Shown here: piece by piece, positions 43,527 through 64,000 of the stretch
Layout: each line of letters starts with the position of its first letter
Position numbering within the stretch: position 1 is the first letter of the stretch
Assembly (NCBI GenBank): GCA_965208615.1
Contig: CBDBPB010000007.1
Span: 96,001-160,000 of the forward strand
DNA from: Spirochaetota bacterium
GTDB taxonomy: Bacteria > Spirochaetota > UBA6919 > CBDBPB01
Reading direction: 5' to 3'
Length of the DNA stretch: 64,000 nucleotides
Notes under the pieces: model-generated
The model's database searches: none
What the model saw: only the letters and a program-made list of their open reading frames with translations
Told to the model about the DNA's origin: nothing
Translations under genes and position numbers: made by a program

Positions 43527-44936
43527 CTAACCCACCTTCTCAATGAAGATTTGAGCATAGATAGCCTTAAGACCAGTGGGAGGTGTACGTCTATTAGAGG
43601 ATGCTACGCCTAACGTTTCTTTGGGATTTGGAGCTTCCTTTAGAACATAGTGCTCTAGTTTAAAGTTGTCATCTGAAGAGATATTCAATACCCCTATCAA
43701 ATGCGATCTTGTTTGTACACTTTCAATATCAGAATACTCCCATGAGCCGTTTATTGTTTTTCCTCTATCGCTTTTAATTCTAAAAGTGTGCTTTTGTACT
43801 CGAATAGCTGGTGCAGAAGCTCGAATTTTATATATCCCTTTTGGTAATGTAAATTCGTTTTTAGGCTTATCTAATTTTAATCCTGCTATGTTAGTGTCTA
43901 TTTTGTTTAGCTCTCTAGTTGTCCAGGCATTATCTTTAGCTTCACCACCACCTATTCCCATGTGTCTATTTACATCAAGTTCATGCCATATTTTAGCGTA
44001 TTCATATTTTAGCTTTGGTGGAGTGATGGCACCATTAGCTATCTTAGCCGTTTTGATAGCATTATCAGCTACCTTAGTCTTTGTGATGGCACCATTAGCT
44101 ATTTTAGGCGTTGTGATGGCCTCACTATCTACCTTATCCTTTGTGATGGCACCATTAGCTATCTTATTCGTTGTGATGGCATCATCAGCTACCTTAGCCC
44201 TTATGATGGTATTATCAGGTATCTTATCCGTTGTGATGGCACCATTAGCTATTTTAGGCGTTGTGATGGCACCATCAGCTACCTTAGCCGTTTTGATGGC
44301 TTCATTAGCTATTTTAGGCGTTGTGATGGCACCATCAGCTACCTTAGCCGTTTTGATGGCTTCATCAGGGATCTTACTTTCTATAACAGTATCGTCTGCT
44401 ATCTCATAAACGCCTTTTTTTAGCGTTGACTTTTGTCTGGTGATTTCTATTTTTTTATAAGTCCCGTCTGATATGGCTTTTATGATTATCTTTCCGCATA
44501 AAACGCCATGTTCACTTTTATGCTCGTGATCATTAGTATCTTTAACAAGGCTTATTTCAGCAGCAAAACTGCTGTACTCATGCTCTTTAGTAAAAGGGTC
44601 TTCTGATATTTCAGTAGTCTTTACGTCCTCAACAGCTTTTAGGTATACATAGTACTCACCGTACTCAGAGGGCATTGAATGGGTTTTATCCTTGTCTAAA
44701 GAGGCATAATTTCCATTGTAATAAAATCCGTTAGGACAGCTTGTTATTTTTATTTTATCGGTACCTACGGTTTCTATTAATCCGTGATCAGTACCAAGGG
44801 GAGTGCAAAAGCCATCGGTCATATACTTTTCTACATTTCTTTTGATACGACTGCTAAGCTCATCCATAGTGTTAGTCCAATCTGTATCGAAAAACTTTAT
44901 AGGCTTATCCAGATTCCCAAGTTTTAAATATCCCAT
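43527..44936 (-). CDS. Tail fibre 3: shared N-terminal adaptor, decapeptide repeat shaft, beta-sandwich-like tip
   Basis: N-terminus near-identical to 45551..48058 and 49068..50507; ITTxKIAxGA repeats; distinct C-terminal domain. Confidence 0.75.
   Translation of the reverse strand: MGYLKLGNLDKPIKFFDTDWTNTMDELSSRIKRNVEKYMTDGFCTPLGTDHGLIETVGTDKIKITSCPNGFYYNGNYASLDKDKTHSMPSEYGEYYVYLKAVEDVKTTEISEDPFTKEHEYSSFAAEISLVKDTNDHEHKSEHGVLCGKIIIKAISDGTYKKIEITRQKSTLKKGVYEIADDTVIESKIPDEAIKTAKVADGAITTPKIANEAIKTAKVADGAITTPKIANGAITTDKIPDNTIIRAKVADDAITTNKIANGAITKDKVDSEAITTPKIANGAITKTKVADNAIKTAKIANGAITPPKLKYEYAKIWHELDVNRHMGIGGGEAKDNAWTTRELNKIDTNIAGLKLDKPKNEFTLPKGIYKIRASAPAIRVQKHTFRIKSDRGKTINGSWEYSDIESVQTRSHLIGVLNISSDDNFKLEHYVLKEAPNPKETLGVASSNRRTPPTGLKAIYAQIFIEKVG
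44021..44380 (-). repeat. 30-bp tandem repeat (~12 units) encoding AITTxK(I/V)AxG/D
   Basis: Units like TTGTGATGGCACCATTAGCTATCTTA every 30 nt; related arrays at ~47400-47490 and ~49630-49920. Confidence 0.9.
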
Positions 44937-44962
44937 GTTATATCCTTTAATGAATAAAATTT

Positions 44963-45532
44963 CTAATCCATGTTTATAATGTTTTTAATTTTGTTGTTAT
45001 ATGTGATCCACTTGCTTAAATTAGAATTGGGATCACGAGTTAAAGTTTTTAGCTTTCTCTTTAAGGATGACATTGTAAGAGAGTGCATTATTGTATTAAT
45101 GAGGGTATCCATAGCCTTACGGTTTAGAGATAGTTCTTTGGATGTCTCAAAAGCCTCAGCTATATTAGTTTTAGCCCTTAACTTTTTCTGATCAACATAG
45201 TCAGGATGATTTTTGATTTCTTGATCACTTCGTTTTTTTACGGTTACCTTCATGTTAGGTAGTTCTGAATGATATTTCTTTCTTCGATGATATTTTTCGT
45301 AATCATCTATATGGTGATATTCCTTTCTTAGTCTTGGATCATATTTTTCATAATCCTCATGATCAAGGTTTTCCATAGTATTTGGGTCTATGTAGTACAC
45401 ATATACGTCGTCTTTTATTGGATTAAATTGTTCGTCAAAGACATCTGGATTATTAACTAAAATATAATCCCCATACCGTCCTCTATGATCAATGTCAACA
45501 ACGTTGTTATTATTATCTATTCTTACAAACAT
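44963..45532 (-). CDS. Hypothetical protein, possible tail-fibre chaperone
   Basis: 189 aa between two fibre genes, beta-rich N-terminus MFVRIDNNNNV. Confidence 0.45.
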   Translation of the reverse strand: MFVRIDNNNNVVDIDHRGRYGDYILVNNPDVFDEQFNPIKDDVYVYYIDPNTMENLDHEDYEKYDPRLRKEYHHIDDYEKYHRRKKYHSELPNMKVTVKKRSDQEIKNHPDYVDQKKLRAKTNIAEAFETSKELSLNRKAMDTLINTIMHSLTMSSLKRKLKTLTRDPNSNLSKWITYNNKIKNIINMD

Positions 45533-45550
45533 AATTCCCTCTTTTTATAT

Positions 45551-63357: not shown

Positions 63358-63568
63358 TATAAAATTCCTCTAAAAACTTGATATCAGCTATAAGTTTGTA
63401 ATAGTCATCCGATAGCGGTAGGATGGTGGATTCGCTAATATTTTTATTAGGGAACCACCTACCGGCAAGCAAGTATACAGAAGGGTCATATCCCACTTCT
63501 ATAGAGCCAAGTTTTATATACTTACCTTTATTGAGTTCTGTTACCCGCTTGTCTATTAATTCTTTCCC
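63341..63568 (-). CDS. gpT-like -1 frameshift extension of the tail assembly chaperone (73 aa)
   Basis: Slippery G GGA AAG at 63562-63568; the -1 frame stays open (ELIDKRVTELNK...EEFYNGKNK) to TAG at 63341. Confidence 0.75.
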   Translation of the reverse strand, partial: GKELIDKRVTELNKGKYIKLGSIEVGYDPSVYLLAGRWFPNKNISESTILPLSDDYYKLIADIKFLEEFYNGKNK

Positions 63569-63987
63569 GCTTCGGCTATTCCAACCCCCTCTTTGGTTAG
63601 GAGTATATTACCCAAACTGAGCAGGAAGGTTGCTGGGACTTCGTGATTATCAAAACTTATATCATTAATTAGTTTTAAAGTTCCGCCCTCACTGTTACCA
63701 GCAGCCATGAGCCTACAGATTTGTATATTTTGATCTAACCCATCCTTTGACGGTTTATTAATCACTCTCATAAGCCTTTTAACATCGGCTGAGTGGAATA
63801 TTCCACTAAATTCAAAGTCGGGTTCATGCACTAAATATACCCGTTTATTTTTTTTAATGACAATATCAATCTCAACCTTATGATTGTTAAATGCTTTAAC
63901 ATCCTCGTTATTGTCCAAGAAGTCTTTTGGATCAACTCCGTCTTTAATTTTATCTCTGTGTCTGTGCAAGCTAATGCAGTATATCAT
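63556..63987 (-). CDS. Tail assembly chaperone (gpG-like)
   Basis: AAAGGA RBS; 143 aa ending AGKN* over a lambda-type slippery site; upstream of the tape-measure slot. Confidence 0.7.
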   Translation of the reverse strand: MIYCISLHRHRDKIKDGVDPKDFLDNNEDVKAFNNHKVEIDIVIKKNKRVYLVHEPDFEFSGIFHSADVKRLMRVINKPSKDGLDQNIQICRLMAAGNSEGGTLKLINDISFDNHEVPATFLLSLGNILLTKEGVGIAEAGKN

Positions 63988-64000
63988 ATTTTTATCCTTT

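Follow-up and report, generated by a model that had tools for sequence, protein, structure and literature searches.

Killing by R-type tailocins is commonly attributed to puncture alone, and one fibre usually sets their aim. The R-type pyocins use a P2-lineage tail, carry one fibre with its chaperone and kill by membrane depolarization without an enzymatic payload. Type VI secretion systems are anchored inside the attacking cell and place a toxin on VgrG or PAAR. Here, we analyzed a 64,000-nucleotide (nt) stretch of a Spirochaetota bacterium (positions 96001-160000 of contig CBDBPB010000007.1, here C7), which we call the window, from a 2.46-Mb genome in nine contigs that is rated 99.4% complete. 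A phage-tail element of approximately 32 kb extends from trxB to an array of seven tRNA genes before tig, and the window (43136-64000) holds its fibre-to-chaperone part. The element is a headless, immobilized Mu-lineage tail cluster that is composed like an R-type tailocin, and its baseplate hub carries an extension that, by homology, belongs to an unnamed family of RHS-associated C-terminal polymorphic-toxin domains. On balance, and with some reservation, we favor the view that it is a Mu-lineage R-type tailocin with a tethered effector that arose from a Mu-like prophage.

The described systems nearest to this locus are the R-type syringacin/Rp4 tailocins of Pseudomonas, which derive from a phage with a Mu/SfV-like tail (PMC4542187, PMC4684702). 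As far as the available parts of these two reports go, they resemble the element in being headless Mu-lineage tails at a fixed site, with regulators and a lysis cassette and without head or replication genes, and in having the tape-measure region as their least conserved part; cargo genes within tailocin clusters have also been described (PMC4684702). In those tailocins, the tape measure is recognizable and deletion of its block abolishes killing (PMC4542187), and the same available parts present a single fibre with a chaperone and mention no hub toxin domain (PMC4542187, PMC4684702). In contrast, the element lacks a recognizable tape measure, fuses its hub to a toxin-type domain and bears a wedge propeller besides three fibres, and we liken the two by layout, not by sequence. 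An initial annotation of the window had concluded that the locus fits neither the R-type tailocin nor the Afp/PVC-type model of contractile injection systems. This was too strong, as the layout is that of a Mu-tail-lineage R-type tailocin with additions, a kind that is known in Pseudomonas from what these partly available sources describe (PMC4542187, PMC4684702). With R-type pyocins, the element would share headless contractile particles, release by lysis and a specificity set by fibres.

Toxins on structural proteins of contractile or phage-derived machines are known from elsewhere. In evolved VgrG and PAAR-Rhs proteins of type VI secretion, the toxin sits covalently on the puncturing tip of a contractile machine, as far as the consulted part of the source describes it (PMC8651079), and the toxin family of the element's hub also occurs on RHS proteins. 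The carrier differs, because in the element a phage-derived tail accompanied by a lysis cassette bears the toxin-type domain on its gp27/gpD-type hub; nor did we find a cognate immunity gene. The MuF polymorphic toxins of temperate phages, in the excerpted account of them, likewise join a phage structural-type protein to a C-terminal polymorphic toxin domain, although their carrier is a head protein (PMC5576092), whereas in the element it is a baseplate hub in a cluster without head genes. A search by titles of the literature on tailocins, contractile injection systems and toxins found no toxin-bearing hub in a tailocin. A headless Mu-lineage tailocin would be of a known kind, and the hub toxin-type domain, the orphan paralogs in the tape-measure slot, the three fibres, the wedge propeller and a repeated upstream element are the unusual additions here.

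The initial annotation had described a P2/Mu-like tail gene order that abuts trxB with no integrase or att signature and that is altered by four paralogs in the tape-measure slot, a toxin-like fusion on the hub, two LysM domains, a propeller on the gpI-like wedge protein, three fibres and repeated internal regulatory elements. Taken gene by gene, from the fibre at 43527 to the chaperone at 63987, this description held, except in part at the att site and at the wedge propeller. Pfam and PHROGs were used to scan 21 proteins of the window, and 23 proteins in the next 40 kb after 64000 were also scanned (19 of them with PHROGs as well). A paralogous cluster 290 kb away in the same contig, which we call the sister, served for comparison; it was located by a second sheath copy and by tblastn of all element proteins (C7:~433000-460000). 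All sizeable open reading frames (ORFs) between 43527 and 63987 lie on the minus strand. To the left stand trxB (42163-43137) and an aminoacyl-tRNA synthetase gene, and the remainder of the window consists of ordinary host genes. The features of the element in the window are as follows, with protein lengths in amino acids (aa).

63341-63987, minus strand: tail assembly chaperone with a -1 extension; 143-aa ORF at 63556-63987, heptamer at 63568-63562; 76% identity to the sister's protein
61699-63357, minus strand: g17, 552 aa; orphan-family member in the tape-measure position
60856-61494, minus strand: g16, 212 aa; recent, incomplete duplicate of g15 that has a separate membrane anchor
59091-60791, minus strand: g15, 566 aa; full-length orphan-family member, no family match
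58071-58949, minus strand: g14, 292 aa; short orphan-family member with an N-terminal membrane anchor
56838-57842, minus strand: LysM protein, 334 aa from its likely start (ORF called to 57920); DUF6046-like N-terminus
54978-56834, minus strand: hub-toxin fusion (g12), 618 aa; hub residues 1-~290, linker ~340-375, toxin-family domain ~377-575
54090-54734, minus strand: spike-like protein, 214 aa; role mainly from position
53670-54080, minus strand: protein at the gpW/gp25 position, 136 aa; role by position
52341-53670, minus strand: gpJ-like wedge protein in two frames, 52341-53045 and 53008-53670 (pieces of 220 aa and 234 aa)
51594-52283, minus strand: gpI-like wedge protein, 229 aa; phrog_7378, phrog_6 and phrog_5857 (baseplate wedge); 68% identity to its paralog
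50544-51593, minus strand: propeller module in the same frame as gpI; called ORF 50544-51440, 298 aa
49068-50507, minus strand: fibre 3, 479 aa; PF07484 Collar (E 1.1e-10), phrog_1858 (E 2.2e-23), phrog_523 tail collar fibre (E 2.6e-17)
48155-49057, minus strand: 300-aa ORF after fibre 3, no family match; fibre chaperone by position only
45551-48136, minus strand: fibre 2, 861 aa as called, likely start near 48058; shared N-terminal domain and long beta-propeller repeats
44963-45532, minus strand: 189-aa ORF after fibre 2, no family match; fibre chaperone by position only
43527-44936, minus strand: fibre 1, 469 aa; N-terminal domain in common with the other fibres, then 10-residue repeats and a distinct C-terminal domain; phrog_892 tail fibre (E 1.2e-25)
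43136-43169, no strand: end resembling a Mu-type terminal repeat, just upstream of trxB; 31 of 34 bases agree with the 47-nt terminal inverted repeat of the sister

The initial annotation had named intact head, packaging and integrase genes upstream as the marks of an ordinary prophage. Beyond 64000, we found a different set. In the same orientation follow a 135-aa ORF, assigned as tube by its position and by 81% identity to the sister's tube, then the sheath gene (DUF2586, E 1.4e-23; phrog_907, E 1.3e-14) and a 216-aa ORF. A lysis cassette comprises spanin-like (phrog_739) and endolysin-like (phrog_894) genes, a 70-aa membrane ORF and an XhlA-like ORF with a coiled coil and a transmembrane segment. 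A cI-type helix-turn-helix repressor (E 3.1e-11) and three divergent early genes, including a DUF3102 gene, lead to the tRNA array and tig; an Rfam search reported the seven tRNAs only. No capsid, terminase, portal, integrase or transposase family was detected by Pfam or PHROGs in the 21 window proteins or the 23 downstream proteins. The cluster thus unites the contractile-tail genes of an R-type tailocin (sheath, tube, baseplate and fibre) with a regulator and a lysis cassette of its own, and among the proteins scanned, none is for capsid, terminase, portal, replication or integration.

Two further gene groups stand in this downstream part. Between the tail and the lysis genes, seven small tandem genes of 79-132 aa (C7:162704-165193, plus strand) occupy the place of the head genes, on the strand opposite to the tail genes. 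They encode a coiled-coil protein with a C-terminal membrane helix, whose build we take to be like that of Bdr/XhlA-type proteins, and they vary in the count of 11-residue repeats (33-nt period); six further copies of the family are scattered over contigs C1, C2, C4 and C5. Between the holin-like and spanin-like genes, ORFs of 54, 140 and 97 aa (C7:166025-166927, minus strand) have no family match and no counterpart in the sister's lysis cassette.

The sister is a complete Mu-like transposable prophage. It extends over C7:424837-460169 between perfect 47-nt inverted repeats (424837-424883 and 460123-460169). Its left part holds a DUF3102 gene, an rve-type transposase, a MuB-like AAA_22 ATPase, GemA and a sigma-70-like factor; three antirepressor paralogs, a repressor and the same lysis cassette as in the element are also present. 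The head genes are TerS/TerL, a portal-MuF fusion (991 aa), protease, scaffold, major head protein, adaptor and neck, and the tail genes are sheath, tube, chaperone, a 919-aa tape measure (phrog_28, E 2.4e-48), LysM, a 326-aa hub, spike, an intact 409-aa gpJ, a 272-aa gpI and a single propeller fibre. When the sister was mapped onto the element, the common genes were those for repressor, lysis and tail only, at 37-92% identity: 87-92% for the XhlA-like and two spanin-like proteins, 81% for the tube, 76% for the chaperone, 67-71% for the sheath, 63-67% for endolysin and holin, and 37-39% for the hub and LysM proteins. The two clusters share the gene order from lysis cassette to fibre, a GGGAAAG frameshift in the chaperone and the kind of terminal repeat. 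In contrast, the transposase, MuB-like ATPase, GemA, sigma-like factor, TerS/TerL, portal, head and neck genes and the 919-aa tape measure occur only in the sister; neither its head block, nor its transposition block, nor its tape measure has a counterpart in the element. Conversely, the sister has a hub without extension, one fibre, its 272-aa gpI and no copy of the upstream element of approximately 70 nt described below. A genome of the same order carries on its contig C163 (1-7011) a related baseplate module with LysM, 347-aa hub, spike, gpW, 405-aa gpJ, 422-aa gpI and 505-aa fibre; it is nearer to the sister than to the window's element, and its gpI is ~150 aa longer than the sister's.

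The sheath family and the terminal repeat point to a Mu-like origin, as does the fact that the paralogous cluster has an rve transposase, a MuB-like ATPase and GemA. The borders of the element fit this origin. The gene order abuts trxB and holds no integrase, as the initial annotation had stated, but the claim that no att-like signature is present failed at 43136-43169, where the sequence matches the sister's terminal repeat. At the early end, we found no further copy of this repeat. Because Mu-type transposition accounts for a missing integrase and att site, the one surviving Mu-type end explains both absences, and it shows that the element is immobilized. Another genome of this order has trxB ~5 kb away from the same seven-tRNA array and tig, and the interval is free of tail genes.

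The hub protein g12 is the clearest departure from the sister. Its N-terminal part matches phrog_4930 (E 1.9e-16, residues 1-289) and is of the gp27/gpD type; residues 1-288 align with the sister's 326-aa hub at 39% identity, and the remaining 330 aa have no counterpart there. The fusion lies in one open frame, the other frames being full of stops, and the K/D/Q-rich linker is encoded by 18-nt repeats. We found 12 other hub homologs in 401 phylum genomes. In 11 of them, the frame measures 319-369 aa, compared with 619 aa here, and in the last one, four stops interrupt a frame of 189 aa; the hub of the nearest relative has 347 aa. By this comparison, the C-terminal extension is special to the window's hub among the phylum homologs found.

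Several searches relate the extension to polymorphic toxins. Against 1.84 billion representative proteins, HMMER phmmer gave seven weak matches, one of which (E 2.7e-5) is the C-terminal end of a 1928-aa RHS protein; a match on a Big_1 repeat protein was rejected as spurious. A profile search with the domain retrieved 164 proteins, and among the 120 that were listed, a source names 25 as RHS-repeat proteins and 2 as filamentous haemagglutinin. In two homologs, the end of the RHS core aligns just before the domain, and a comparison of the homologs with PDB sequences matched only the pre-toxin stretch of the RHS core. A word-based search for homologs of the hub domain alone scored 0 of 166 candidates. 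We inspected 56 homolog loci, mostly from Bacteroidota by their titles, and 53 of them have a downstream ORF. Of these ORFs, 45 form one family of ~135-165 aa, whose N-terminal segment is signal-like or lipoprotein-like, and an N-terminal hydrophobic segment occurs in 48 of the 53 compared with 2 of 22 control proteins. Seven members scanned in Pfam gave no significant match, the one match below the cut-off being to DUF6097 (E 0.0033). The domain is hence homologous to post-RHS-core domains with a conserved neighboring gene of the immunity type, a neighbor that the window's copy does not have, and the family and its partner look like an undescribed toxin-immunity pair. Immunity proteins usually sit where the toxin acts. 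The exported partners therefore suggest that the toxin family acts in the envelope, which would suit a domain carried on the tip of a tube.

Among named toxin families, Ntox44 (PF15607) comes closest. In an Atlas feature search, the hub domain adjoins clusters that bear Ntox44 in 17-66% of their members (score 0.94, 213 of 256 features shared). The Ntox44 motifs, as given in the part of the source available to us, are DxK, GNxxxG and DxxxD (Zhang et al., PMC3482391). The first two are present and conserved in the window's domain as D91-x-K93 and G122-N-x-x-x-G127, and the helical part of the model is also shared. However, DxxxD was not located, Pfam gave no match to the hub domain alone at E <= 10, the PF15607 model scored neither this domain nor any of six true homologs tested, and a six-frame search of the genome with PF15607 found no match. 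A single-sequence fold of the C-terminal domain had a mean predicted local distance difference test (pLDDT) value of 33.9 and was discarded as unusable; a fold from 65 sequences reached a mean pLDDT of 78.3. The hub N-terminus, the spike and a profile of the sheath retrieved nothing significant from PDB sequences.

Between the tube and the hub region, a chaperone of the G/GT type precedes four paralogs. The 143-aa chaperone ORF belongs to no family in Pfam or PHROGs, and at its end lies a GGGAAAG heptamer, presumably the one used by lambda G/GT, from which a -1 frame extension runs down to 63341 with 77.6% identity to the sister's extension over 76 aa. A slippery heptamer with a -1 extension is therefore found between the tube gene and the tape-measure slot, as in G/GT-type chaperones. 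The start of g17 overlaps the end of this extension, which places g17 exactly in the tape-measure position. BLASTP among the four gave 27% identity between g15 and g17 along the entire proteins (E 1.6e-35) and 23-26% between g14 and either of these two (E 3e-9 and 8e-8), and g16 is 75% identical to residues 83-243 of g15, with DNA repeats D9/D13 at 92-93%. Tape measures of tailocins are poorly conserved, measure 354-963 aa and are shorter than those of related prophages, according to the consulted part of PMC4684702. Since they vary in this way, an orphan tape measure of ~550 aa of the g17/g15 type is possible.

The element differs from the sister also in its receptor-binding modules. An N-terminal region of ~230 aa is common to the three fibres (56-72% identity) and to the sister's fibre; it is followed by 10-residue repeats, after which the proteins diverge into an own domain (fibre 1), a long propeller (fibre 2) or a collar domain (fibre 3). 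Fibre 1 is 72% identical to fibre 3 over 300 aa and contains the 30-nt repeat families D1/D2. Fibre 2 matches DUF6242 (E 9.6e-15) and the HVO_0234 propeller (E 1.6e-10) and is 55% identical to the sister's single fibre, in an alignment that begins at 48058. The propeller module at the wedge (DUF6242, E 1.4e-11; PSII_BNR, E 1.1e-10) is 62% identical to the fibre 2 repeats. The claimed propeller on the gpI-like protein stood as far as the shared frame goes; as assembled, a single TAA at 51594-51596 separates the two ORFs. Propeller repeats of 26-49% identity also occur at C1:11895-12620, C1:272089-273707, C2:94177-95034 and C4:256655-256939, so the receptor-binding modules share a repeat type with proteins of the cell.

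The other baseplate proteins resemble those of the sister to different degrees. The LysM protein matches PF01476 (E 3.1e-6) and DUF6046 (E 1.4e-5); the second of its LysM domains is a degenerate segment that aligns with the first LysM of the paralog. The spike-like protein has weak matches to DUF2345 (E 0.004) and to a VgrG in the PDB (E 0.092) and is 52% identical to its paralog. The protein at the gpW position has no family match and is 65-69% identical to the ORF at the same place in the paralog. The gpJ-like protein matches Baseplate_J (PF04865, E 2.1e-14), and both of its pieces match phrog_6.

An element of ~70 nt with the core TAGCATATATAGCATA precedes four genes, namely g21, which lies beyond the window, and g16, g13 and g11. 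The copies in the window are as follows.

54742-54823, minus strand: copy 1, with the core twice, overlapping
57880-57961, minus strand: copy 2, 91% identical to copy 1 over 82 nt
61641-61692, minus strand: copy 3, between g17 and g16

All six exact matches to the 16-mer core in the genome fall at the four sites in the element and have the orientation of its genes. Two matches with a single mismatch occur elsewhere, and a control with the reversed pattern gave none. Several internal late promoters are a Mu trait. Consensus scans of promoters (101 found, 85 expected) and terminators (14 found, 10.3 expected) gave no signal. In the spacer between g17 and g16 (61495-61640), downstream of the repeat copy, lies an unusually G+C-rich stretch of ~150 nt without a match in Rfam.

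The intactness of the wedge genes depends on the quality of the assembly. Both gpJ pieces align with the intact 409-aa paralog, and the frame changes between paralog residues 188 and 195. A public contig with a perfect match to 51765-53300 (depth 3.6) has one letter fewer at 53053, in the A run where the gpJ frame changes. The TAA in gpI lies within a 26-nt stretch flanked by two single-base differences from the paralog in the length of A runs. Housekeeping and transport genes of the window are split in the same manner into overlapping ORFs.

8486-10301: CitMHS transporter, two ORFs
10880-12290: ATP synthase beta (atpD), two ORFs
13294-14817: ATP synthase alpha (atpA), three ORFs
23221-24598: OEP (outer-membrane efflux), two ORFs

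Such split genes in a genome rated as nearly complete suggest that the assembly carries single-base indel errors. Because the ATP synthase genes are also split, the gpJ frameshift is probably an assembly artefact, and so, with less support, is the gpI stop. In favor of an intact machine, the tail ORFs are otherwise long and open, the chaperone retains its heptamer and its conserved -1 extension, and comparison with the sister, computable for 11 of 15 gene pairs, gave ratios of nonsynonymous to synonymous substitution rates (dN/dS) of 0.07-0.45, although dS is mostly saturated.

Overall, we propose a putative course of events for the element. What stands between trxB and the tRNA array is the tail, lysis and control part of a Mu-like transposable prophage that has been fixed there after losing its head and transposition modules. 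Upon derepression, the four element-specific upstream copies would drive the tail sub-operons. The sheath, tube and baseplate would then join with as many as four kinds of receptor-binding module to form headless contractile particles, which the lysis cassette would free. Contraction would then bring the hub at the tube tip, with its linker-tethered domain of the polymorphic-toxin type, into the envelope of the target. The sequence itself shows the gene content, the losses, the paralogy, the family to which the toxin-type domain belongs and the repeats, whereas we infer the production of particles, killing, delivery of the domain, its site in the envelope and any tape-measure role of g17/g15. 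A more specific version, namely a working tail bacteriocin that applies the principle of the evolved VgrG outside type VI secretion, in which g14-g17 replace the tape measure by setting tail length or filling the lumen and three fibres and a propeller-bearing wedge do the targeting, we regard as fairly unlikely in all of its parts together. The diversified payload of the initial annotation comes down to one hub-tethered toxin-type domain and four orphan paralogs.

Several observations weigh against a working tailocin with a tethered effector. A recognizable tape measure is missing, as g14-g17 reach at best E 0.35 against the sister's 919-aa protein, and neither was a tail terminator or completion protein recognized. 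The four paralogs have no match in Pfam, PHROGs or NCBIfam and each bear an N-terminal hydrophobic membrane anchor, unlike usual tape measures; g17 matched only itself among 5.8 billion proteins and nothing in 50,697 phage records (best Atlas score 0.77), and a profile of all four reached at best E 0.79 against PDB sequences. A fifth, fragmentary copy stands among host genes, away from the tail clusters (C4:560272-561928, minus strand), where the fragmentation may be an artefact of the indel-prone assembly. As assembled, gpJ is frameshifted and gpI is stopped before the propeller, and among the contigs listed, those that cover the region of the gpI stop are of the sister's copy. The dN/dS values span both lineages jointly, not the element's alone. 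Pattern scans of genome contigs and viral contigs found no close relative of the element, so its conservation between strains is undemonstrable; distant sheath relatives occur in 18 of 400 other genomes of the phylum (best E 5e-30), and six Flavobacterium phage records match at 26% identity. As for the hub, the toxin-type domain departs from its family at several nearly invariant columns, one of which is E in 64 of 64 homologs and M here, and the fold from 65 sequences matches nothing solved (Foldseek best E 0.1; VIA-align best Z 3.6 over 48,161 chains). Together with the lack of a Pfam Ntox44 score, these points indicate that the predicted toxin-type domain may have lost its activity. Finally, neither tblastn nor a hidden Markov model of 45 partners found a cognate immunity gene in the genome.

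Much of this would equally suit a decaying, non-functional remnant of a Mu-like prophage, in which head, transposition and tape-measure genes were deleted, the gaps were filled by host-family genes (g14-g17 and the coiled-coil array) and the tail genes are not yet broken. We think this somewhat unlikely, yet it stays a serious rival because the element has no recognizable tape measure and no close relative. It would also account for the orphan family outside tail clusters, the seven-gene array, on the other strand, of a small family that occurs throughout the host and now fills the former place of the head genes, the two wedge lesions as assembled, the single remaining terminal repeat and the toxin-type domain without several family-invariant residues. 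However, about 20 tail, lysis and regulator ORFs are still open over ~30 kb, and whole modules were deleted so that the set kept is the set that tailocins keep. The element-specific upstream sequence is retained at four sub-operon starts, the fibres are multiplied rather than decayed, and the -1 extension of the chaperone is as conserved as the chaperone itself. Moreover, the gpJ lesion is missing from an independent contig, and nearby housekeeping genes are broken alike.

We also considered that the element might serve the sister as a tail-only partner, supplying toxin-hub tails or baseplates to sister heads, or using the sister's tape measure, and thereby giving another host range. We know of no described precedent for a tail-only partner of another prophage, and we judge the idea improbable. 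Both elements lie on one contig, and the close similarity of the tube, chaperone, sheath and lysis proteins, together with the lack of a recognizable tape measure in the element, would fit such a partnership, but the element has no homolog of the sister's adaptor, neck or tail-completion proteins. The low identity of the hub and LysM proteins makes a mixed assembly with the sister's tape measure doubtful, and the absence of the upstream element from the sister suggests separate control. A fourth reading, that of an Afp/PVC-type extracellular contractile injection system (eCIS) that loads g14-g17 as free cargo into its tube and injects eukaryotic cells, seems to us very improbable. The position of the four paralogous orphans, beside the genes for tube and chaperone, would agree with it, as would the presence of several receptor-binding modules. 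However, no ORF scanned contains an AAA ATPase or an Afp/PVC-type structural family, as an eCIS operon would, and the comparison drawn in the initial annotation fails; the sheath belongs to the Mu-type DUF2586 family; and the lysis cassette, cI-type repressor and GGGAAAG frameshift are traits of phages and tailocins. The entire cluster is paralogous to a Mu-like prophage, and g14-g17 bear membrane anchors.

Should the tailocin with a tethered effector be borne out, the locus would have meaning in several respects. The presence of a complete sister phage in the same genome allows each step of domestication to be read by direct comparison, as loss of head and transposase, exchange in the tape-measure slot and gain of a toxin domain and fibres. 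The orphan family in that slot raises the question of how tail length may be set without a classical tape measure. A toxin-tipped, multi-fibre tailocin would connect this class of particle to the way in which type VI secretion deploys its effectors and would be of interest for engineered precision antibacterials.

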